From positions 1 through 10,807 of the forward strand of contig CBFGJN010000061.1 of the NCBI GenBank assembly GCA_965649115.1: a stretch of DNA of 10,807 nucleotides, given 5' to 3'. A program made the position numbers and the translations under genes. The DNA comes from a candidate division WOR-3 bacterium (GTDB lineage Bacteria > Hydrothermota > Hydrothermia > LBFQ01 > DSFT01). This document shows, one piece after another, positions 1-10,807 of the stretch. Positions within the stretch are counted from its first letter, which is position 1. Every line of letters begins with the position of its first letter. The notes beneath the pieces are model-generated. The model saw only the letters and a list, made by a program, of their open reading frames with translations. It made no database searches and was not told the DNA's origin.

Positions 1-146
1 ATAAAAGCCTTCGGCTTTAAAATACCCATTTTTTGCTTTGGGGGGCAGAGCCCCCCTAATAATCCCCCCAATAAATCAACAATTTCCTTAAAAATTTTAT
101 AAATTATTGATTATCAATCGCTTAACATCATTTATTGGACAAAGCA
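1..146 (+). mobile_element. MITE copy 1 (5' part beyond window edge)
   Basis: Hairpins at 4-18 and 40-56, palindrome at 100-124, right TIR ttattggacaaagca ending at 146. Confidence 0.85.
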
Positions 147-155
147 TCTTAATGG

Positions 156-331
156 TGCTTTGTCTAGTAATTCTGAAAATATAGATTATTTCTTATTTTG
201 CCCGCCCACCCTGTAATTAAGCCTTCGGCTTACAAATTCCCATATTTAGGCTATGGGGGGCTTCGCCCCCCTATAATCCCCCCATAAAATCTATAATTTC
301 TTCAAAGCTTTTATAAGTTTTGGACGAAGCA
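156..331 (+). mobile_element. MITE copy 2 (176 bp, palindrome deleted), flanked by tcttaatgg direct repeats
   Basis: Left TIR tgctttgtctagtaa, right end tggacgaagca. Identical 9-mers at 147-155 and 332-340. Confidence 0.88.
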
Positions 332-340
332 TCTTAATGG

Positions 341-568
341 TGCTTTGTCTAGTAATTCTAAAAATATGATTATTTCTTATTTTCCCCACCCACCCTGAAA
401 ATAAGGCTTCGCCTTAAAAGCTCTGCCCTCCATAAGTTTCCCCGATAAATTCAATAATTTCTTTGAGTTTTTAATAAGCTATTGATTATCAAGGACTTAA
501 CAAAAGGGCTTTAAAAATAAAGCTTCGCTTTATAAATGTCCAATTTTCGGTAAGGGGGCAAAGCCCTC
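341..568 (+). mobile_element. MITE copy 3 (341-~502, no right TIR) plus internal fragment (~513-568)
   Basis: Left TIR at 341, hairpin 402-416, palindrome 475-499. A second set of hairpin 1 (517-533) and hairpin 2 remnant follows. Confidence 0.78.
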
Positions 569-592
569 GAGCAAAATAATCATATTTAGAAA

Positions 593-1768
593 TTATTTAT
601 CTCTTATCATTTCTGAATAAACTGAGTTTGGATAATTTTCAATTAGTTTATCTTTATATGAGCTTATTTTTGTTATCTCGTAAAGTTTATATAATGCGAA
701 AGGTTTAATCCAACTACTATCTGAGATTTTTTCATAATAATTTTTAGCTTCAAATAAAAAATTTTTTCTTTCAAAGTAAATAGCATAAGCAAGATTTTCA
801 AGATTTTTATCTTGAATTTCTTTTTTTTCACCTTTCAATATATAAAAAAAACTTAAAGCATTTTCTAAATCATATGTGTTCAAAATTTCCACATAAAGTG
901 CTATATCATTGTCTATATTTCTTGCTCTTGGAAATGTTCTCTTGAAATAATTTATAACACTTTCAGGACTTTGTGTGTATAAGTAAGATAAAAAGCATTC
1001 CTTATAAAAGTCATTAGAACAAAATTTTATAACATCTTTGTACTTTTTCATTTCAAATAAAGAAATTATAATTTTTGATGTATCTTTTGTTAATTTAATT
1101 GCTTTTTGATAGTTTCCAATTTTCATATAACTTATAGCAGATGTTTCTGGTTCTAATTCTTCAAGAATTTTTGATGCTTCTTCATAATTGCCAGTTTTAT
1201 AGAGCGAAAGTCCATATAATCTCCTTGAAAATTCATCATTTTTATTTTTTAGAATTTCTATAACTTTGTTATAATTTCCGTTCTCATAATAACTATTTGC
1301 AATAGTTAGACTATCCGAAATATCATTAGCCCACTTCAAAGCCATTTCAAGCTTATTATCAGTAATTAAAAATCTAAAAATTGATTTTCTAAAAACATAA
1401 TTTCCTTTATATTTTTCAATATATCTGTAAATTTTACTGCCATAACTACTATATAGTCTTAGTATTTGATAAAAAATATAGTTTTCATCTTTTGATTTTG
1501 AAAGCTCAAATAATGAATTTTCAATATCATCCTTTTTATAATAGTACTCAAATGCCTCATTTATCATAATATTTTCACTTTTTAAAACTTCCCTTGCTGT
1601 TTTAATAACGATCATTTCATCTAAATTGTATCTTAAAAATAAATAATATGCTTTTGTAAATTCTTGTTCAGTTTTTAAGTTTTTAAGTTCAGAAATTGCT
1701 AATTCAATTTGATGATTTTTTAAGTAATTTTCTAAGTTTTTTAGTTCAACTATTATTGCTATTAACAT
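593..1768 (-). CDS. Tetratricopeptide-repeat (TPR)-like helical protein
   Basis: 391-aa ORF with repeated TPR-like helices (IANSYYENGNYNKVIEIL, YGLSLYKTGNYEEASKIL, YMKIGNYQKAIKL) and a C-terminal LIENYPNSVYSE typical of TPR envelope proteins. Its start overlaps the hflX stop region. Confidence 0.7.
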   Translation of the reverse strand: MLIAIIVELKNLENYLKNHQIELAISELKNLKTEQEFTKAYYLFLRYNLDEMIVIKTAREVLKSENIMINEAFEYYYKKDDIENSLFELSKSKDENYIFYQILRLYSSYGSKIYRYIEKYKGNYVFRKSIFRFLITDNKLEMALKWANDISDSLTIANSYYENGNYNKVIEILKNKNDEFSRRLYGLSLYKTGNYEEASKILEELEPETSAISYMKIGNYQKAIKLTKDTSKIIISLFEMKKYKDVIKFCSNDFYKECFLSYLYTQSPESVINYFKRTFPRARNIDNDIALYVEILNTYDLENALSFFYILKGEKKEIQDKNLENLAYAIYFERKNFLFEAKNYYEKISDSSWIKPFALYKLYEITKISSYKDKLIENYPNSVYSEMIRDK

Positions 1769-2981
1769 AACTATAAAACCTCTTATGAATTATTCCTTTT
1801 ATTCTTATTTTCCCATCTAAAATTTCTTCCTCTTCAATTAAAGCAAATCTCCTAATTTTTGAATATAAGTTGTAGTTTTCTGTTATAATTTCAAACTCCA
1901 AAAATTGTCTTAATATCAATTCTTTAATTTTTTCTAATAAATTTTCTATTCCTATTTTGAGTTTTGCAGAAATAAAAACACTATCTGAAAATTTTTCTCT
2001 AAATCTATATATTTGGTTTTTGTCAATAATTAAGTCTATTTTGTTAAATACCATTATTTTTGGCTTTTCTTCAAGACCCATTTCTGATAAAATTTTTTCA
2101 ACAGTTTCAATATGCTCATTTACATTAGGATGAGAAATATCAACGACATGTAAAATTAAATCTGCATCTTCAATAACTGATAATGTTGCTTTAAATGATG
2201 CAATTAAGTTTGGTGGTAAGTCTCTTATAAATCCGACTGTATCTGAAAGAACAACTTTATATGGAATTCCATCAATTTTTAAACTTCTAGTAGTAGCATC
2301 TAAGGTCGCAAATAGTTTATCATCTACATAAACATTTGATTTTGTTAATAAGTTCATAATCGTTGATTTTCCAACATTTGTATAACCAACAAGTGATATT
2401 TTTATGAATTCTCTCCTGCTTTCTTTTTGAATTTCTTTGGTTCTTTCTATATCTTTTAATTTATTCTGTAAATGTCTTATTCTTTCTTTAATTCTTCTTC
2501 TTTCATTTTCAAGTAATTGCTCACCAGGTCCTCTTGTTCCTGGAACACCTGCTAACCTTGAAAGCGAAATTTCTTTACTTAAACCTACAAGATGAGTTAA
2601 TTGATATTGCCAATATGCGATTTCAACTTGAATTTTTGCTTCTGATGTTCTTGCTCTTCTTCTAAATATCTCAATTATTAGTTCAGTTCTATCTATTATT
2701 TTTTTATTTGTTGCTTTTTCTATATTCCTCTTTTGAATTGGTGTCAAATCATTATCAAAAATAATAACAGGAATTTTATAGTCATCACATATTTTCTTTA
2801 ATTCAAGAACTTTTCCTTTACCTATTAAATATGCAGGGTCAGGTTTTTCTCTTATTTGAATGAATTTTTCAAAGACTTCAAATTCAGCAGATTTTGCAAG
2901 TTCTTCAAGTTCTTCAAGTCTATCTAATCCTTTCCATCTATCTTTACTATTTCTTATTAGAGATATTAAAATTGCTTTCAA
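1746..2981 (-). CDS. hflX: GTPase HflX (ribosome-splitting factor)
   Basis: IGKGK, IDRTELIIEIF..RART.EAK.QVE, RGPGE, G1 GYTNVGKST, LFATLD, G3 DTVGFI and G4 NKID motifs. TTG start overlaps the clpX TGA stop. Confidence 0.97.
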   Translation of the reverse strand: MKAILISLIRNSKDRWKGLDRLEELEELAKSAEFEVFEKFIQIREKPDPAYLIGKGKVLELKKICDDYKIPVIIFDNDLTPIQKRNIEKATNKKIIDRTELIIEIFRRRARTSEAKIQVEIAYWQYQLTHLVGLSKEISLSRLAGVPGTRGPGEQLLENERRRIKERIRHLQNKLKDIERTKEIQKESRREFIKISLVGYTNVGKSTIMNLLTKSNVYVDDKLFATLDATTRSLKIDGIPYKVVLSDTVGFIRDLPPNLIASFKATLSVIEDADLILHVVDISHPNVNEHIETVEKILSEMGLEEKPKIMVFNKIDLIIDKNQIYRFREKFSDSVFISAKLKIGIENLLEKIKELILRQFLEFEIITENYNLYSKIRRFALIEEEEILDGKIRIKGIIHKRFYSYVNSNNS

Positions 2982-4189
2982 GCTGCTTCTATAATTGGTT
3001 CCTTATCTTTATCAACAACTTCTCTTGTTATTATAATTCTTCTTACACCCTTCATACTTGGAATTTTGTACATCCATTCCATAAGGATATCTTCAACAAT
3101 TGCTCTAAGTCCTCTTGCTCCAACTTTCTTACTATAAGAAATTTCCGCTATTCTTCTTATAGCATCATCAGTAAAAACAAGCTCTATGCCTTCCATTTCA
3201 AAAAGTTTTTGGTATTGCTTAATTAAAGCATTTTTTGGCTCTTTTAAAATTCTTTCAAGTGTTCCTATGTCAAGTGGGTCAAAGACAGCAATTACTGGTA
3301 ATCTTCCAACCATTTCTGGAATAATACCATATTTTATTAAGTCTTCTGGCTCAACATAATGTAATATCTGACTATCTGTAATTTTATTTAAATTTGCCAT
3401 AAATCCAATTTGTTTTTTCCCAAGTCTTGACTTTATAATTTCAGCAAGTCCTTCAAATGAACCTCCCATCATAAATAAAATGTTAGTTGTATCAAGTTGA
3501 ATGTAGCTTTGTTCAGGATGTTTCCTTCCTCCTTGTGGAGGGATATTTGCAATTGTCCCTTCAACAATTTTTAGTAATGCTTGTTGAACACCTTCACCAC
3601 CAACATCTCTTGTAATTGATGGATTATCACTTTTTCTTGAAAGTTTATCAAATTCATCAAGATAAACAATTCCTATTTCTGCCATTTTTAGATTATAATT
3701 AGCATTTTGAACAAGCCTTAAAAGAACATTTTCTACATCTTCTCCAACATAACCTGCTTCTGTTAATGGTGTTGCATCATAGATAGCAAATGGAACTTTT
3801 AATAGTTTTGAAAGTGTTTTTGCCATAAGTGTTTTCCCAACACCTGTAGGACCAATCATAAGGATATTTGACTTTTCAATTTCAACATCTTTAAATTTGT
3901 TTTTAAATTTAATTCGTTTATAATGATTATAAACAGCTACTGAAATAATTTTTTTTGCCTTTTCTTGGCCAATTATATACTCGTCTAAGAATGCTTTTAT
4001 TTCAGATGGTTTAGGCAGATTATAATTCATTTCTTCAAATTCAAGTTCCTCATCATTAATAATTTCATAAGCAAGTTCTATACAATCTCTACAAATATAA
4101 GCAAAATTTCCACCTACTAATTTTCCAACTTCTTTTTCACTCCTACCACAAAAGGAGCATTTCAAATCAGAAAATTTTCTTTTATTCAT
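2978..4189 (-). CDS. clpX: ATP-dependent Clp protease ATP-binding subunit ClpX
   Basis: C4 zinc-binding domain (CSFCG...CRDC), Walker A GPTGVGKT, GYVGEDVE pore loop, Walker B VYLDE, RDVGGEGVQQALLK, RKH and IGF loops. The ATG at 4189 is preferred over the TTG at 4195. Confidence 0.98.
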   Translation of the reverse strand: MNKRKFSDLKCSFCGRSEKEVGKLVGGNFAYICRDCIELAYEIINDEELEFEEMNYNLPKPSEIKAFLDEYIIGQEKAKKIISVAVYNHYKRIKFKNKFKDVEIEKSNILMIGPTGVGKTLMAKTLSKLLKVPFAIYDATPLTEAGYVGEDVENVLLRLVQNANYNLKMAEIGIVYLDEFDKLSRKSDNPSITRDVGGEGVQQALLKIVEGTIANIPPQGGRKHPEQSYIQLDTTNILFMMGGSFEGLAEIIKSRLGKKQIGFMANLNKITDSQILHYVEPEDLIKYGIIPEMVGRLPVIAVFDPLDIGTLERILKEPKNALIKQYQKLFEMEGIELVFTDDAIRRIAEISYSKKVGARGLRAIVEDILMEWMYKIPSMKGVRRIIITREVVDKDKEPIIEAA

Positions 4190-4196
4190 CTTCAAA

Positions 4197-4202
4197 ATTT
4201 TA
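4197..4202 (-). promoter_or_regulatory. Putative -10 box (TAAAAT) 7 nt upstream of the clpX ATG
   Basis: Minus strand reads gcttTAAAATtttgaagATG. The same motif precedes three other operon-first genes. Confidence 0.55.
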
Positions 4203-4216
4203 AAGCATAAATTTAT

Positions 4217-4397
4217 TGCTATGTCTAGTAATTCTGAAATTATTTATTTTTCTTATTTTTCCCTTCCACGCTGAAATTAAGCCTTCGGCTTATAAATCTT
4301 CGCCCCCCATTAAAACCTCCCTTAAATAAATAATTATAATAAAATTTTTATAAGTCCTTGATAATCAATTGCTTAACACTATTTACTGGACAAAGCA
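4217..4397 (+). mobile_element. MITE copy 4 (181 bp), flanked by taaatttat direct repeats
   Basis: TIRs tgctatgtctagtaa / ttactggacaaagca. 9-mers at 4208-4216 and 4398-4406. A TIR-end remnant aaagca lies at 4202-4207. Confidence 0.88.
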
Positions 4398-4406
4398 TAA
4401 ATTTAT

Positions 4407-4574
4407 TGCTTTGTCTGGCAATTCTGAAAGTATTTATTTTTCCCACCCGCCCTAAGATTAAGGCTTCGCCTTAAAGCTATGCCCCCCATCAACCCCCCTA
4501 AAATCAATAATTTTCTTAAAAGTTTTATAAGTCATTGATAATCAATAACTTAACGCTATCTACTAGACAAAGCA
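4407..4574 (+). mobile_element. MITE copy 5 (168 bp, internal deletions)
   Basis: TIRs tgctttgtctggcaa / ctactagacaaagca, hairpin 4458-4474, palindrome 4528-4552. Confidence 0.87.
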
Positions 4575-4583
4575 TTATAGATT

Positions 4584-4789
4584 TGGTGTCTCCAATAATT
4601 CTAGAAACATATATTTTTCTATATTTTGCCCACCCACTCTGTATTCAAGCGGACGGCTTTAAAAGAACCCCATCTTATGCCTTGGGGGGCTTTGTCCCCC
4701 AATAATTCTCCCGTTAAATCAACAATTTTCTTAAAACTTCTATAAGTTATTGATAATCAAGGACTTATCATCATTTATTGGACAAAGCA
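4584..4789 (+). mobile_element. MITE copy 6 (206 bp), flanked by ttatagatt direct repeats
   Basis: Variant left end tggtgtctccaataa, right TIR ttattggacaaagca. 9-mers at 4575-4583 and 4790-4798. Confidence 0.88.
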
Positions 4790-4798
4790 TTATAGATT

Positions 4799-4968
4799 TG
4801 GTGTGTCCAGTAATTCTAAAATCATTTATTTTTCTTTATTTTTCCACCCACCCTATATTCAAGACTTAGCCTTTAAAATTCCCATTTTTCGGCATTGTGG
4901 AGCTATGCCCCCATAATTCCCCCCATTAAGTCAATAATTTCATTTAACATTAATTACTGGACAAAGCA
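4799..4968 (+). mobile_element. MITE copy 7 (170 bp, palindrome deleted)
   Basis: Ends tggtgtgtccagtaa / ttactggacaaagca, with degenerate hairpins. Confidence 0.85.
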
Positions 4969-5017
4969 TTTTTTATACCTCGGGGGCGATACTCCTATAA
5001 ATTCAGTAGTTTTAAGT

Positions 5018-5221
5018 TGCTTTGTCTAGTAATTCTAAAAACATATATTTTTCTTATTTTTCCCACCCACCCTATGAATAAGCCTTCGGCTTATAAATAC
5101 CCCATCTTTTGCTGTGGGGGACTTCGCCCCCCTACAATTCCCCCGAAAAATAAATAATTTCCTTGAAAATTTTATAAGTTATTGAAAATCAAGAACTTAA
5201 CACCATTTATTGGACAAAGCA
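5018..5221 (+). mobile_element. MITE copy 8 (204 bp, full length) with 9-bp TSD gttttaagt
   Basis: TIRs tgctttgtctagtaa / ttattggacaaagca. gttttaagt at 5009-5017 and 5222-5230. Confidence 0.92.
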
Positions 5222-5240
5222 GTTTTAAGTAGATTTTTAT

Positions 5241-5300
5241 CAGAAAACATTTATTTTTCCTATTTTTTCCACTCGCCCTGAATTCAAGCCTTTGGGTTAT
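5241..5300 (+). repeat. Degenerate MITE left-arm fragment
   Basis: gaaaacatttatttttcctattttttccactcgccctgaattcaagcctttgggtt aligns with the element's left arm and hairpin 1. No TIR. Confidence 0.7.
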
Positions 5301-5312
5301 ATTGGTAGTCAA

Positions 5313-5756
5313 TCACTTAATATAACTTTCAACAATTTTAATGATTTTTTCAACTTTTTCAAAACCATCATCTATTGCTTTTTTACTTTGTAATTCTCTA
5401 TAATAACCACCAAGATGAAGAATGTCATAAACATGATTAAAAAGTTTTCTTATAATATCTTTATCTTTACCAAGTCTTGAAAGCTCATTTATGAATTTAT
5501 CATACATATCAACTTTTTTTAGTTTCTGTTTTATTTCTTTTTCGTCTAATAATTCTTCACTTATAAATAGCGCTTTTAATGCTTCAAGTGCTGATAAGTA
5601 TGCCTTACCACAAGCTGATGATACATATTTAACATCTACATACTCTCCAACTTTCTTATCAACTTTTGCTTTCTTTAAATCCTCCTTAGCATTTTCTAAA
5701 TAACGCTTTGCCAACTCTAACCTCTTTAATGCTAATCCATTTTTCCTATCTTTCAT
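5313..5756 (-). CDS. DUF5618/PaREP1-like HEPN-superfamily helical protein
   Basis: AKRYLENAKEDL...Y.D.KYVSSACGKAYLSALEALKAL...YDILHLGGYY...IDDGF resembles the DUF5618/PaREP1 pattern, recognised by eye. The ATG at 5756 (147 aa) is preferred because it follows the same TAAAAT-N7 motif as other operon starts. Confidence 0.65.
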   Translation of the reverse strand: MKDRKNGLALKRLELAKRYLENAKEDLKKAKVDKKVGEYVDVKYVSSACGKAYLSALEALKALFISEELLDEKEIKQKLKKVDMYDKFINELSRLGKDKDIIRKLFNHVYDILHLGGYYRELQSKKAIDDGFEKVEKIIKIVESYIK

Positions 5757-5763
5757 AAATAAA

Positions 5764-5769
5764 ATTTTA
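5764..5769 (-). promoter_or_regulatory. Putative -10 box (TAAAAT) 7 nt upstream of the HEPN-like gene ATG
   Basis: Minus strand reads ccttTAAAATtttatttATG. Confidence 0.55.
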
Positions 5770-5791
5770 AAGGATGATAAATTCAATTAAT

Positions 5792-5995
5792 TGGTGTGTC
5801 CAAAAATTCTGAAAATATATATTTTTCTATATTTTGCCCACCCACCCTAAAATTAAGGCTTCGCCTTTAAAATTCCCATTTTTCGGCTTTGGGGGGCTTC
5901 GCCCCCCATCAACCCCCCATAAAAACTATAATTTTCTTAAAATTTTTATAAATCCTTGATAATCAATAACTTAACATTATTTACTAGACACAGCA
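5792..5995 (+). mobile_element. MITE copy 9 (204 bp, full length, no evident TSD)
   Basis: Ends tggtgtgtccaaaaa / ttactagacacagca, with both hairpins and the palindrome (5949-5973) intact. Flanks tcaattaat and aaatataat differ. Confidence 0.88.
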
Positions 5996-6012
5996 AAATA
6001 TAATTACTTTTT

Positions 6013-6885
6013 TTAAAACTTTGCAATTGAAAATGAAAATAAACTAATTAAACTTGCTTCAATTGAAGCATATCTTTTTATTAAATCTTCAATTTCAAGA
6101 GAATGTTTAAGAATTTTATAGTGAATTTCATTTGAGCTTTCAATATATTTCTTCTTATAATAAAATCTAAAAACTCTTAAAAAATTCATAAAATCCCTTG
6201 AATCTTGAATAGTTTTTGAAATTTCTAAAACCTCTTTAACACTTCTTATTTCATTTAATATATTTAGCCAATCATTTATTGGATAATTATTTAATTGCTT
6301 TGCTATGCCAATTGAACCTTCTGAAATTTCATAAATCAATTTTATATTGTAATTCCAATTGTATTCATAACTTGAAAATTCTTCAAAACTTAAACATTTA
6401 AAAGAAATTTTTAAAGTTCTTGAAAGAATTGTAGGAAGAATTTTTAAATAGTTTGAAGTTATTAAAATGAATGTTGTTCTCTTTTGGTATTCTTCAAGAA
6501 TTTTTAAAAGTGAATTTTGGGCTTCAATTGTAAGCATATCCGCATCCATTATTATTACAATTCTTTTTTTTGCATAAATTGGTGGTTTTTGTAATTCAAT
6601 TTTTAAATTTCTAATTTGTTCTATGGAGATATTTTTTAGATTATCAAAATTTTCTGGTCTTGGGCCATAAGGCTTTAATTCACCAACACTAATAAAAATA
6701 ATGTCAGGATGATTCAATTTATAAATTTTTTCTTCTTGTTTTGGATTACATAAAGAACAAAAATATAGGGCAGTTGTCGATTTACCAATACCAAATTGAC
6801 CATAAAATAATAAGGGAGGAACATTTTCAAATTTTGAAATGGAAATTAAATGTTTTAAAATATCTTTATGGCCGATGATGTTCAT
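6013..6885 (-). CDS. holB: DNA polymerase III subunit delta' (clamp loader)
   Basis: NIIGH start, LLFYGQFGIGKST, HPD, ISIEQIR.L, IIMDADMLTIEAQNSLLKILEE and ILPTILSR motifs. The 290-aa length fits HolB rather than DnaX. Confidence 0.88.
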   Translation of the reverse strand: MNIIGHKDILKHLISISKFENVPPLLFYGQFGIGKSTTALYFCSLCNPKQEEKIYKLNHPDIIFISVGELKPYGPRPENFDNLKNISIEQIRNLKIELQKPPIYAKKRIVIIMDADMLTIEAQNSLLKILEEYQKRTTFILITSNYLKILPTILSRTLKISFKCLSFEEFSSYEYNWNYNIKLIYEISEGSIGIAKQLNNYPINDWLNILNEIRSVKEVLEISKTIQDSRDFMNFLRVFRFYYKKKYIESSNEIHYKILKHSLEIEDLIKRYASIEASLISLFSFSIAKF

Positions 6886-6903
6886 AAAGTTTGATAATTA
6901 TAA

Positions 6904-7280
6904 TGCTTTGTCTAGCAATTCTAATGCTGTGTCTAGTAATTCTGAAAATATAATCATTTGTATATTTTTCCCACCCACCCTATATTCAAGGCTTCGCCTT
7001 TAAAATACCCTATCTTATGCTTTGGGGGGCTTCGCCCCCCTTAAATTCCCCCATTATTTCAAGCATTTTAATGAATTTTTAATAAGTTATTGACTATCAA
7101 ACACTTAACATTATTTACTAGACAAAGCACAATTCTAAAAATATATATTTTTCTTATTTTGCCCACCCACCCTAAATATAAGCCTTCGGCTTTAAAAACC
7201 CCAACTTTTGCCATCAGGGGGCTCTGCCCCCCTTAAATACCCCATTAAGTCAGTAGTTTCATCATTTATTGGACAAAGCA
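6904..7280 (+). mobile_element. MITE copy 10 (6904-6924 + 7139-7280), interrupted by copy 11
   Basis: The left TIR starts at 6904, the body resumes after the duplicated caattctaa, and the right TIR ends at 7280. Confidence 0.87.
6925..7129 (+). mobile_element. MITE copy 11 (205 bp, full length), nested in copy 10 with TSD caattctaa
   Basis: TIRs tgctgtgtctagtaa / ttactagacaaagca (14/15 complementary). caattctaa at 6916-6924 and 7130-7138. Confidence 0.92.
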
Positions 7281-7312
7281 AGACAAAAATAAGAGTATAA
7301 TTTTTAGTCCTT

Positions 7313-7318
7313 TAAAAT
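7313..7318 (+). promoter_or_regulatory. Putative -10 box (TAAAAT) 6 nt upstream of the efp ATG
   Basis: Plus strand reads ccttTAAAATtttcatATG. A TATAAT at 7296-7301 is an alternative. Confidence 0.5.
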
Positions 7319-7324
7319 TTTCAT

Positions 7325-7885
7325 ATGGCTGAAATAAGAAAAGGAATAGCAATTAAATATAAAAATGAACCCTATTTAGTCCTTGATTTCAAACATGTTC
7401 ATAAAGCAAACGATATTACTACATATTCCTTAAAGGTTAAACATATAAAAACAGGAAATGTTTATAATTTGACAATGAAAAGAGATGAACCATTTGAAGA
7501 AATTGAACTTGAAAAACATCAAGGAATTTTCTCTTATAAGCTGAATGACGAAACATTTGTATTTTTTGACAATCAAACTTACGAAGAAGTTCATTTAAAT
7601 AAATCTGATATTGAGAATGCTCTTGGGTACTTAAAGGAAGGTATGGAATTATTTATATTATATATTGATAATCAACCAATTGGTATTGAACTACCTAACT
7701 TTGTTGAACTTGAAGTTATTGAAACCGAACCTAATTTTAAAGGTGATACAGTTGCTGGTGGTGGAAAACCTGCAAAACTTGAAACGGGAATTGTTATAAA
7801 AGTTCCATATTTCATTGAAGTTGGTGATATTATAAAAGTAGATACAAGAGAAGATAAATATGTTGAAAGGGTAGGAAAAAAATGA
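7325..7885 (+). CDS. efp: Translation elongation factor P (atypical domain-I loop)
   Basis: 186 aa with [31 protein letters not shown]...[23 protein letters not shown]...YVER. Lies upstream of accB, a common linkage. Confidence 0.95.
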
Positions 7886-8340
7886 GATTTGAAGATATTT
7901 TAAAAATTATAGAAATTTTTGAGAAAAGCAACTTAACTGAGCTTGAAATAAAAATTGATGAGCCTAAATTTAAAATAAAGCTTTCAAAAAATAATCAATT
8001 TCAAACACAAGTTGTTCAAATTCCACAAATTCAAAATTTTCAACCAATTCAAAAGGAAGAAGTTATTAAAGAAACAAAAGAAGAAAAGAAAGAAAACATT
8101 CATATTATTAAATCTCCACTTGTAGGGACATTTTATAGAGCACCTTCACCAGGTGCTGAACCATTTGTTAAAGAAGGTGATTTTGTTAAGAAAGGACAAG
8201 TTTTATGTATTATTGAAGCGATGAAAGTTATGAATGAAATTGAAAGTGATGTTGATGGTATCGTTGAAAGGATTCTTGTTGAAAATGGAAAACCTGTTGA
8301 ATATGGTCAAGAACTATTTATTATTAGGTTAAGTTCTTGA
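7882..8340 (+). CDS. accB: Acetyl-CoA carboxylase biotin carboxyl carrier protein
   Basis: [21 protein letters not shown] and the biotinylation motif [15 protein letters not shown] overlap with efp. Confidence 0.97.
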
Positions 8341-9848
8341 TTATCTTTGCTTTAATTTTAGTTCTCATCTTAAATTTAATTTTAGTAAAGCCTTTGTTTT
8401 CAAAAATTTTAAGAGCACTTGCTATATTCATTTTAATTTTAATGGTTTTAAATCCAAAAATAACAACCTACGAATATAAAAAAGAAAAAATTGCTATTGT
8501 ATTTGATTTAACAAAAAGTTCAAAGTGGCTTTTGGAATTTTATAAAAGTTTAGATACAAAAAATTTTGATAAATATGAACTTGGCGATAGTATTTACAAA
8601 TTTAAAAATTTTGAATTTAAATACAATATCACGAATTTAAATGCTTTAAGCTATCTTAAAAATTATGATAAAATCATTTATGTTGGTGATGGGTGGCATA
8701 ACTATCCATCTGAAATTGATTATAATGGTTTTTTTTCACCGATTTATGTAATTTATCCAAATGTAAAAGCAAGTGAAATATCAATAAAAAATTATATTTA
8801 TCCTAAGTTTGTTGAACCAAATGAAATTTTTCAAACTTATCTTGAAGTTTTTTCAAATAAAGATACAACAATAAATTTTCAAATTAAACTTGATACAATC
8901 ATTCAAAAGAATTTAAATTTATCAAAAGGTATAAATTCATTTACCTTTATTCTAAAAGCACCAAGTCTTGATGGAAATTATAAAATAAATTTGAAAATAT
9001 CAAATAAATTAAGACAATATAGTTTAAATGTAAAAAGTCCTTCAAAAAATGTTCTAATTAATGTTTATAAAATTACACCTGAAATTGGCCTATTAAATAG
9101 ACTTCTTAAAGATTTAGGATATAATGTTGTTTTAAATTTAAAAAATGAAAAAATTAGTGGAAATTTTGAATTAACAATTGGATATGGAAAGGATAATGGG
9201 GAAGATTTAGTTTTTATTGAGGGCAAGAAAAAATTTGTTAATTTTAGGGGCATTGATAGTGTTGTTGATTTTAAGTTAGATGAATTTATTTTAAATCCTA
9301 TTAGTGGAATTTATAATAATAGAGTTTTTGTTCTAACTAATGAGCTTTGGAAAATTGGAAGATTTGATTTTTTAGAGTATAAAAATTTATTATTGCCAAC
9401 CATAAACACTGCCTTAAATTTAAAACCAAGAATAGATATTGATTATCATGTCGTTTTCAATAAGGCATATTTAAAAGTTAGTTCAAATAATCCAAATGTT
9501 AAATTTTATTTAAATGACAAAGAAATCCCAAATTATAATGTACTTAAAATTCTTAAACCTGAAACGTTAAATTTAAAAGCGTTTTTAAATGCAAGAAAAA
9601 TTTATGAGAATAAAATTACTTTAATGCCTGATACAATTGGTTTTGAGAATGAAGAAGGAATAGATAGTTTAACACTTGCTAATCTCGTTAATAAAACAGG
9701 TGGAAAATTTATAAAAAGCCCAAATGAAATTAAATCTGAAAAAATTAAAATTCAAAAAGAAATTTTTAATAATTTATTTTTTGGATTTTTGGTTATTTTT
9801 TTAATTTTAATTGATTTTGTATTAAGAAGATTTTTCGGTTTCAGATAG
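8337..9848 (+). CDS. Membrane-anchored protein with degenerate vWA-like domain
   Basis: Two N-terminal hydrophobic helices, MIDAS-like [15 protein letters not shown], a beta-rich middle region, [12 protein letters not shown] and a C-terminal TM helix ending [14 protein letters not shown] start overlaps the accB stop. Confidence 0.6.
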
Positions 9849-10346
9849 TTCTCTTACATAAGGTAAATATCTAAATTTTTCAGAAAAATCAAGACCATAT
9901 CCTACAAGAAATTTATCAGGAACAACGAAACCAACATAATCTGCTTTTATATCAACTTTTCTTCTTTCAACTTTATCAAGCAAAACAGCTAATTTAAGAG
10001 ATTTTGGGTTTCTTGAAAGAAATAAATCTTTTATATATTTAAGCGTTAAACCTGTGTCAAGTATATCTTCAACAATAATAACATCTTTATTTGTTATATC
10101 AAGAGAGGTGTCAAGTTCAATTCTAACAATTCCTGAACTTTCCGTAGCTTGACCATATGATGAAACTTTTATAAAATCTATTTTAGATGGAATTTTAATT
10201 TCTCTCATAAGATCTGCTAAAAATACAAAGGCTCCCTTTAAGACACCTATTAAAATTATTTCATCACAATTTTTATAATCTTCGTTTATTTTTTGTGCTA
10301 TTTCCTTAACTTTTTTTCTTATTTCATCTTCTGTTATTATGAACAT
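9822..10346 (-). CDS. hpt: Hypoxanthine phosphoribosyltransferase
   Basis: GVLKGAFVFLADL, VSSYG, PRPP-binding IIVEDILDTGLTL, LLDK and FLVGYGLD motifs. Confidence 0.97.
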   Translation of the reverse strand: MFIITEDEIRKKVKEIAQKINEDYKNCDEIILIGVLKGAFVFLADLMREIKIPSKIDFIKVSSYGQATESSGIVRIELDTSLDITNKDVIIVEDILDTGLTLKYIKDLFLSRNPKSLKLAVLLDKVERRKVDIKADYVGFVVPDKFLVGYGLDFSEKFRYLPYVRELSETEKSS

Positions 10347-10353
10347 AGTGAAA

Positions 10354-10359
10354 ATTTTA
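10354..10359 (-). promoter_or_regulatory. Putative -10 box (TAAAAT) 7 nt upstream of the hpt ATG
   Basis: Minus strand reads ccctTAAAATtttcactATG. Confidence 0.55.
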
Positions 10360-10386
10360 AGGGTAGTTTTACTTTAAAATTGGCAA

Positions 10387-10487
10387 GGGGGCTTCGTCCC
10401 CCACTGCCGAAAAATGGGTATTTATAAAGCAAAGCTTTATTTTCAGGGCGGGTGGGGAAAATATAGTAAAATAAATAATTTTAGAAT
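10387..10487 (-). repeat. MITE fragment in reverse orientation, truncated by copy 12
   Basis: Hairpin 2 remnant, hairpin 1 at 10424-10440, agggcgggtgggg and the left arm, which stops at ttttagaat. Confidence 0.78.
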
Positions 10488-10692
10488 TGCTTTGTCTAAT
10501 AAATAGTGTTAAGTGATTGATTATCAATAGTTTATGAAAATTATGCTGAAATTATTGATTTTTTGGGGGGAATTAAAGGGGGGCGGAGCCCCCCGAGGCA
10601 TAAAAATGGGTTTTTTAAAGCCAAAGGCTTAATAGCAGGGTGGGTGGGAAAAATAAGAAATAATGATATTTTCAGAATTATTAGACAAAGCA
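10488..10692 (-). mobile_element. MITE copy 12 (205 bp, full length, reverse orientation)
   Basis: Ends tgctttgtctaataa / ttattagacaaagca form a perfect 15-bp inverted repeat. All internal motifs are present in reverse order. Confidence 0.9.
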
Positions 10693-10701
10693 TAATTTAC
10701 T

Positions 10702-10807
10702 TGCTTTGTCCAATAATTATTGTTAAGCGATTGATAATCAATAATTTATAAAATTTTTAAGGAAATTGTTGATTTATTGGGGGGATTATTAGGGGGGCTT
10801 CGCCCCC
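10702..10807 (-). mobile_element. MITE copy 13 (reverse orientation, truncated by window edge)
   Basis: TIR tgctttgtccaataa lies exactly 9 bp (taatttact) from copy 12. Palindrome at 10724-10748. Confidence 0.85.

Follow-up and report, generated by a model that had tools for sequence, protein, structure and literature searches.

A MITE family inserted at a preferred distance and orientation upstream of promoter-like boxes in a candidate division WOR-3 bacterium, and its predicted IS903-group parent

The stretch of DNA analysed here (the window) is the entire contig C61, 10,807 bases long, from an assembly of a hot-spring bacterium of candidate division WOR-3 (GCA_965649115.1, contig CBFGJN010000061.1). 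Copies of a transposable element of the miniature inverted-repeat type (MITE) of ~205 bp lie in all its intergenic regions. Insertion of this element is position- and orientation-specific relative to promoters, a property that had been missed in an earlier examination of the window by a model that saw the letters and their open reading frames (ORFs), hereafter the sequence-only reading. Probably, the MITE is mobilised in trans by a transposase of the IS903 group, which would place it at a fixed distance and in a fixed orientation upstream of promoters.

The MITE family and its position relative to gene starts

A profile made from five full window copies (F, H, J, K and M; Table 1) was used for the counts in the window and genome-wide. 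In the window, it has 15 matches, which cover 2,435 nt (22.5%) and leave none of the five intergenic gaps without a copy, in line with the claim of the sequence-only reading that one family occupies every intergenic region. Full copies measure 204-206 bp there, and the alignment of nine copies bears out the module order described earlier, that is left inverted repeat, AT tract, CCCACCCACCCT, hairpin 1, hairpin 2, C-runs, palindrome and right inverted repeat. Exact 9-bp flanking duplications are present at five copies (B, D, F, H and K), the number given in the sequence-only reading. Extended to the whole genome, a count that had been proposed in that reading, the profile gives 699 matches, 223 of them full-length, that occupy 94,080 nt (5.1% of the genome) on 93 of the 99 contigs. 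The terminal inverted repeats pair positions 1-17 with positions 205-189 in most of 203 copies, and no ORF of 80 aa or more is found inside the copies. An exact 9-bp duplication surrounds 87 of the 193 full copies having both flanks, and 12 more show one mismatch. As a control, the next 9-mers outwards are identical in 0/193 cases; duplications of 7, 10 or 11 bp were not found (0/193 each) and those of 8 bp number 7/193. With their inverted repeats, 9-bp duplications, lack of coding capacity and high copy number, the repeats are genuine MITEs, as had been proposed. A search of Rfam, also suggested earlier, returned nothing above threshold, the one match scoring 21.6 bits against a gathering score of 58.6.

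The mean pairwise identity among full copies is 79%. Since this value stands alongside 40 of 203 full copies that have a sibling at 98% identity or more (three pairs are identical), the family is old yet still active. Further evidence of mobility comes from the insertion of copy K within L. The bases of L at profile positions 13-21 (CAATTCTAA) flank K on both sides and are single in uninterrupted copies. This nesting is an internal empty-site proof, the uninterrupted copies of the family being the empty site. Thus, the family combines what is expected of MITEs: it is short, it has terminal inverted repeats and a duplication of fixed length, its ends are common with those of an autonomous element (see below), and empty sites exist.

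The left flanks of the copies contain a recurring box, CTTTAAAATTT on the gene strand (AAATTTTAAAG as seen in the flanks), located 3-9 nt before start codons. For 314 of the 573 exact boxes in the genome, the ATG of an ORF of at least 60 aa follows 3-9 nt later (6/573 in the reverse-complement control). The box is therefore a gene-start signal, and it can be proposed that it corresponds to the -10-like promoter element of the lineage. No -35 motif is visible at these promoters. Because the box is only 3-9 nt before the ATG, the messages would be leaderless or nearly so, which suggests that many genes of this lineage are expressed in this manner from a -10-only promoter.

Distances to the box were measured in 281 left flanks not adjoining another copy and in 153 right flanks. 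The left end lies 18-19 nt from a box in 164 of the 281 free left flanks (major register) and 10-13 nt from it in 47 others (minor register). The main peak is narrow, with 121 flanks at 19 nt and 43 at 18 nt, as compared with 4 at 20 nt and 2 at 17 nt. At the right flanks, a box is found within 80 nt in 30/153 cases, with no preferred distance (at most 3 at any one distance). Seen from the promoters, 205 of the 573 exact boxes have an element end at most 40 nt upstream, 141 of them at 18-19 nt and 41 at 10-13 nt. Both registers are represented in the window, by copy J for the box of the HEPN gene (19 nt) and by copy D for that of clpX (11 nt). The minor register is enriched for a TG before the box, with a G at position -1 in 19/24 sites versus 28% in the major register; the enrichment is weaker over the wider 10-13 nt class. 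The resulting TGCTTT corresponds to the first six bases of the inverted repeat. The hexamer AAAGCA before copy D was considered as a remnant of a right end and rejected, as it is the clpX box plus two bases.

Copy H was used to search for the family in the host genome and 18 others of the same order. It is present in the host genome and in two congeners, G002 (62 matches) and G003 (3 matches); it was not found by this search in the congeners G001 and G004, nor in 14 genomes of other genera. The clpX promoter is occupied in the host genome at 11 nt and in G002 at 19 nt, and it is empty in G001, G003 and G004. Because the two distances differ, the clpX insertions are two independent events. These three promoters, in addition to the nesting of K in L, represent empty sites, which the sequence-only reading had proposed to look for in related genomes. 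Downstream of the HEPN gene, the host genome and G002 have an old copy in common. The preferred position recurs in a second species (Candidatus Hydrothermia bacterium), where 17/35 left ends have the box 18-19 nt away and 7 have it at a distance of 11-12 nt; chance matches to the same pattern in unrelated genomes show those distances in 0/44 cases. At the strain level, no clean empty allele was found among the contigs of four public runs compared with the window. The many joints seen in this comparison are cross-matches among MITE copies of other loci, and the contigs of a 95.6%-identical strain stop at the MITE boundaries 4215, 5996 and 6885. Contigs from an RNA library of a relative span genes and some MITE parts; they are uninformative on transcription, starts or ends.

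An insertion sequence with the ends of the MITE

The sequence-only reading had suggested looking for a transposase ORF bounded by the family ends. An insertion sequence (IS) sharing the MITE ends was indeed found at contig ends; its interior is unassembled. Two recurring sequences of ~126 nt were identified, each beginning with the inverted repeat of the family. The right-like end, present at 10 contig ends or near-ends, resembles the right end of the MITE and continues with a host-type box, then with an ATG opening MGKVNWQEYNKELVRRGEIW. The left-like end, present at 16 contig ends, resembles the left end of the MITE and contains the last codons of a gene and 82 non-coding bases. The ~126-nt ends are 98-100% identical to one another, which suggests recent copies. 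For 6 of the 10 right-like ends, the outer 9-mer is identical to that of a left-like end (by a rough estimate, ~0.003 pairs are expected), which shows that the IS also makes 9-bp duplications. As a side result, the 9-mers common to contig pairs predict six joins in the assembly (C1-C22, C20-C39, C38-C16, C83-C33, C88-C76 and C93-C43).

At least 16 copies of the IS are present in the genome. Because the shortest contig of the assembly measures 2.8 kb, a multicopy IS of 1 kb would be missing from it. For the same reason of incomplete assembly, the absence of any match to the Pfam domain DDE_Tnp_1 in the whole genome is misleading, since the assembly contains no more of the transposase gene than its first 19-56 codons. 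The longest of these N-termini (56 residues, from C93) shows 92% identity, over 86% of its length, with the closest complete transposase, P0001 (300 aa), a protein from other contigs that was used as a 92%-identical stand-in for the unassembled gene. P0001 contains PF01609 (88.9 bits) and PF13737 (73.5 bits) and matches the NCBIfam model NF033579, 'IS5 family transposase' (245.5 bits). Adding up the pieces, the length of the IS would be 67+903+82 = 1,052 bp. A single-ORF DDE transposase of ~300 aa with PF01609 and PF13737, 18-bp repeats, a 9-bp duplication and a size of ~1.05 kb are the attributes of the IS903 group, and each was found here. By domain content, size, repeats and duplication length, the predicted parent is thus an IS5-family, IS903-group IS of ~1,052 bp.

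P0001 and the transposase of IS903B are collinear over residues 4-290, both being ~300-aa proteins of the PF13737 plus PF01609 type, and both elements make a 9-bp duplication; the identity between the two proteins is 26.6%. A plasmid copy of IS903B measures 1,057 bp and has 18-bp repeats GGCTTTGTTGAATAAATC, to be compared with ~1,052 bp and TGCTTTGTCCAATAAATA for the present IS; 14 of the 18 bases agree. 

The sequence-only reading had favoured an IS256/Mutator-like donor, on the basis of the 9-bp duplication and of TGTC at positions 6-9 of the inverted repeat, and nothing else. This proposal turned out to be wrong. Transposase_mut (PF00872), the Pfam domain of IS256, has no match in the genome, and the same search used as a control is positive in 6 of 14 known genomes. 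In addition, the IS having the same ends and the same duplication length encodes an IS5-family protein and has an IS903B-like repeat. An IS256/Mutator-like donor can, in practice, be dismissed.

The MITE and the IS have ~17 nt in common at the left end and ~26 nt at the right end, and no more. The idea that the MITE is an internal deletion of the IS was rejected, as only the ends align convincingly. Pairs of inverted repeats 400-4,000 bp apart were also inspected as a possible parent and set aside; the 13 candidates are ordinary genes located between two MITE copies, for instance an ORF resembling alanine racemase.

The IS is positioned like the MITE. Among its left-like ends, 11/16 have a box 18-19 nt away, the distance being 19 nt in 10 cases and 18 nt in 1. 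Metagenomic relatives of the IS with a readable left end give the same picture in 6 of 6 cases, with distances of 19, 19, 18, 19, 11 and 18 nt from the box or from a variant of it such as CTTTATACTTT.

In G013, a genome of the same order and of another family, the first codons of a related transposase are found at contig ends (C46:4648-4686, C39:16084-16121 and C1:21780-21817). A related IS is probably present there in unassembled form, though the MITE family was not found in this genome. On the metagenome contig L016 (~210-370), a different MITE of ~170 bp has the same ends and the palindrome module, and is devoid of the two hairpins; it sits within a decayed copy of a related IS. Finally, a sequence close to the host box (CTTAAAATTTT or a variant of it) is found in each full MITE copy at profile positions ~143-160, for instance at 5162-5172 and 5935-5946 in the window. 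This near-box aligns with the position of the promoter of the IS transposase.

Proposed mechanism, alternatives and related systems

The following mechanism can be proposed. The IS903-group (IS5-family) DDE transposase encoded by the ~1,052-bp IS would mobilise the MITE in trans by recognising the common terminal inverted repeats, over 15-18 bp. The target would be cut with a 9-bp stagger, as the duplications indicate, and the left end, which in the IS is the end downstream of the transposase gene, would be placed towards the gene, at one of two distances upstream of the box CTTTAAAATTT, 18-19 nt in the major register and 10-13 nt in the minor one. In this manner, the core promoter would stay intact and only the DNA upstream would be replaced. 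New copies would then enter at the same 9-mer of an already occupied promoter, giving head-to-tail arrays with exact 9-nt spacers.

Alternatively, insertion may be nearly random in AT-rich intergenic DNA, with selection producing both distance and orientation. Insertions in genes or core promoters would be lost and the nearest harmless place is just upstream of the core promoter; moreover, 40 of the 191 full copies are located elsewhere, neither at a box nor adjoining another copy. However, the peak is one to two bases wide, though the whole upstream spacer would be harmless, and the right end has no preferred distance. The IS copies with 98-100% identical ends, which are apparently recent, are also positioned in this way in 11/16 cases, and the orientation within arrays is near-absolute (see below). 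We regard this explanation as very improbable. 

The arrays deserve attention in this respect. Among neighbouring copies, 88 of 104 head-to-tail pairs are exactly 9 nt apart, to be compared with one right-to-right and one left-to-left pair, and in several arrays the 9-mer is identical throughout. The 9-nt spacing can be explained if each new copy hits the promoter-side duplicate left by an earlier insertion; such repeated hits on occupied promoters would build the arrays that fill every intergenic gap of the window. An exact duplication is found for 27/55 promoter-proximal copies and for 13/35 other array copies, and the distal copy of an array is often truncated. Array growth would reflect either hot promoters or attraction by the resident left end. 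The second possibility can be extended to the view that new copies mainly target the outer edge of a left end already in place (self-targeting and tandem amplification), the association with promoters stemming from rarer founders. An older copy is found just beyond the distal duplication in 32 of the 55 copies with an exact duplication at a box, 6-7 of the 10 right-end flanks of the IS adjoin what we read as MITE remains, and the 9-bp target of minor-register sites lies directly against TG+CTTT, in other words the first six bases of the inverted repeat (G at -1 in 19/24). On the other side, at least 141 exact boxes at separate loci have an end at 18-19 nt, so that many founders must have been precise as well; 23 of the 55 copies are singletons, and the arrays are also explained by re-use of an attractive promoter. 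Self-targeting as the principal mode is, in our opinion, rather unlikely, less so than an effect of selection. It can also be noted that two arrays of two copies in the host genome (C1:59266 and C4:18773) have a single flanking 9-bp duplication (ATTTTTTTG and TTATTTTTG, respectively) and a different inner spacer. This suggests that a MITE dimer can transpose as one unit.

Several facts weigh against insertion directed to promoters by an IS903-group transposase. No box is found within 80 nt in 56 of the 281 free left flanks; other such facts are the 40 full copies located elsewhere and the 32 copies beside an older one, since attraction by a resident left end could account for part of the pattern. 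The promoter nature of the box is deduced from its position before start codons. No complete IS exists in the assembly, and its interior is represented by a 92%-identical protein of other contigs. In the window, copies E, G, J and M have no flanking duplication, and the elements next to the efp and hpt boxes are not in the canonical arrangement (Table 1). The target motif WTTYA-N9-TRAAW has been described for IS903 (PMC2577343). In the present genome, this motif is not enriched, a 5/5 match being found in 3.7% of the sites versus 4.3% of the control windows. Such a preference is a behaviour of IS903 itself and not a defining feature of the IS903 group. Another difference from IS903 is the insertion of the present element in one orientation and at a fixed distance from a promoter box.

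How an IS903-group transposase having no extra domain as compared with that of IS903 would find promoters can be tentatively addressed. The TG plus box sequence (TGCTTTAAAA...) mimics the tip of the inverted repeat (TGCTTTGTC...). The transposase might therefore read the box directly, one subunit docking on this pseudo-end and insertion taking place at a fixed distance upstream, in one orientation. We consider this reading possible, though doubtful. If it were true, promoter homing would have arisen in bacteria a second time, independently and by a mechanistically simple route, and this would have let one MITE occupy about a third of the promoters of this organism without killing it.

Oriented insertion upstream of promoters is known from the conjugative elements TnGBS and the insertion sequences ISLre2 and ISKra4. 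These elements, which encode Mutator-like transposases, keep one orientation and enter sigma-A promoters 15-17 bp upstream of the -35 box (PMC3942029). The orientation was attributed to the asymmetry of the two inverted repeats (PMC3942029). The likeness with the present element is functional and does not imply membership. The transposases of these elements belong to the Mutator-like superfamily and have a signature motif tied to targeting, whereas the present one is of the IS5 family; in the present case, the reference is a -10-like box, with the end at 18-19 nt, about where a -35 box would begin. Expansion of a MITE is not described in the part of that article covered here (PMC3942029). In the literature searched, these Mutator-like elements are the only DDE transposons for which oriented, base-precise promoter homing is reported. 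Promoter targeting by the IS903/IS5 family or by such a MITE was not found in a search whose coverage mostly left out subscription journals, and a search by lineage name gave, among the papers listed, none on the insertion sequences of the lineage. The feature to be noted is the way in which an IS5-family element inserts upstream of promoters, in one orientation and with near base precision.

If targeting is real, it would amount to a safe-haven strategy and would explain ~700 copies in a genome of 1.85 Mb. The insertions would then be natural promoter markers in an uncultured lineage, and one 300-aa protein with two 18-bp ends would offer a simple experimental system for studying how a transposase finds promoters. 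The insertion sites also indicate a -10-like box so near the start codons that many genes are probably leaderless.

Hairpins, window features and host genome

The MITE contains two hairpins. In hairpin 1, one base pair is compensatory (C-G in 126, G-C in 59 and other combinations in 11 of 196 copies) and shows no linkage with other columns. In hairpin 2 (profile columns 105-111, for instance 261-267 and 5119-5125 in the window), the stem is nearly invariant and the three loop bases form complementary pairs across copies: TTC (35) and GAA (20), TTT (15) and AAA (14), TCC (12) and GGA (8). It looks as if template switching in a DNA hairpin had inverted the loops. In some copies, one strand reads GCGAAGC, a sequence described as an extraordinarily stable DNA mini-hairpin (PMC13037366).

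The sequence-only reading had suggested that the family may also act as a chromosomal element similar to the repetitive extragenic palindromic sequences (REPs) or bacterial interspersed mosaic elements (BIMEs). REPs and BIMEs are likewise abundant, intergenic, hairpin-bearing and clustered, and one can imagine elements domesticated by the host, in which the hairpins serve as terminators, insulators or RNA stabilisers and maintain the copy number. The conservation of the stems despite a mean pairwise identity of 79%, the compensatory pair of hairpin 1 and the folding of copy H, better than that of shuffled sequences (z of -6.5 on the + strand and -2.8 on the - strand), are consistent with such a role. 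REPs have neither terminal inverted repeats nor target duplications. The present elements have both, as well as a DDE parent, and no match to a Y1/RAYT transposase (PF01797) was found in the genome. The hairpin motifs are rarely found elsewhere than in the MITE (264 inside versus 7 outside for one motif, 398 versus 6 for the other), which argues against a general host signal. The pattern of a hairpin plus a T-run, typical of a terminator, is found in just one window copy; a simple scan for sigma-70 promoters and terminators was uninformative, with 6 terminator-like sites for 3.8 expected. The complementary loops of hairpin 2 point to inversion at the DNA level rather than to a selected RNA loop. 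Since inverted repeats, duplications and the parent IS account for the copy number without any host function, a REP/BIME-like role is unsupported and appears improbable.

The copies and promoter-like boxes of the window are given in Table 1. According to a repeat finder, the copies up to 7280 are on the + strand and those from 10384 onwards are on the - strand.

Table 1. MITE copies, fragments and promoter-like boxes of the 10,807-base window
Feature	Position	Strand	Description
Copy A	1-146	+	Cut by contig start; profile 64-205 from base 5; right end at 146
Copy B	156-331 (profile match 156-327)	+	176 bp, deletion near right end; TCTTAATGG at 147-155 and 332-340
Copy C	341-502	+	Profile 1-186, without right inverted repeat; 9 nt after copy B
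clpX promoter-like box CTTTAAAATTT	4195-4205	-	clpX ATG at 4189; left end of copy D 11 nt upstream of box
Copy D	4217-4397	+	181 bp; TAAATTTAT at 4208-4216 and 4398-4406; promoter-proximal in the D-E-F-G array
Copy E	4407-4574	+	168 bp, deleted form; flanks unlike
Copy F	4584-4789	+	206 bp, full length; TTATAGATT at 4575-4583 and 4790-4798
Copy G	4799-4968 (profile match 4799-4967)	+	170 bp, deleted, without palindrome module; flanks unlike
Copy H	5018-5221	+	204 bp, full length; GTTTTAAGT at 5009-5017 and 5222-5230
Fragment I	5240-5299	+	Profile 17-77; abuts 3' end of DUF5618/HEPN gene; old insertion, also at G002 ortholog
DUF5618/HEPN gene promoter-like box	5762-5772	-	ATG at 5756; left end of copy J 19 nt upstream of box
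Copy J	5792-5995	+	204 bp, full length, canonical 19-nt position; no duplication left (TCAATTAAT versus AAATATAAT)
Copy L, left 21 bases	6904-6924	+	L split by copy K; continues at 7130-7280
Copy K	6925-7129	+	205 bp, nested in L; CAATTCTAA at 6916-6924 and 7130-7138
Copy L, remainder	7130-7280 (profile match 7131-7274)	+	Deleted form, profile 13 onward; right end at 7280
efp box	7310-7320	+	Right end of copy L 29 nt upstream; non-canonical
hpt box	10351-10362	-	Adjoins fragment N, truncated; non-canonical orientation
Fragment N	10384-10490	-	Profile 12-118; truncated at both ends
Copy M	10488-10692	-	205 bp, full length; flanks unlike
Copy O	10702-10807	-	Cut by contig end, profile 101-205; 9 nt after copy M

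The host assembly comprises 1.85 Mb in 99 contigs, with 27.6% G+C and a completeness of 94.5%. Both termini of the window fall within repeat copies. Over the whole assembly, 82 of the 198 contig ends touch a MITE copy and 26 contain IS ends, which explains why assemblies of these organisms break. The nine ORFs of the window encode a TPR protein, HflX, ClpX, a DUF5618/HEPN protein, DNA polymerase III delta', EF-P, the biotin carboxyl carrier protein, a 503-aa protein and a phosphoribosyltransferase. A domain search found no transposase domain among them, as had been read from the sequence. A tRNA scan gave no tRNA, and the 503-aa ORF downstream of accB (8337-9845, + strand) has no Pfam match at E 0.001.

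A last observation concerns the DUF5618/HEPN gene. Six paralogs end in ..Y(V/I)K-stop (5296-5330 in the window, C22:11360, C13:7753, C50:3726, C71:3821 and C7:48766). After the stop codon, some of them, such as that of C22, have a palindrome of the TTGATTATCAATA type, degenerate in the window gene, which corresponds to the right subterminal module of the MITE. In the C22 paralog, the palindrome is present without a MITE after it. The palindrome module may have been acquired from the end of a HEPN gene, or the reverse.

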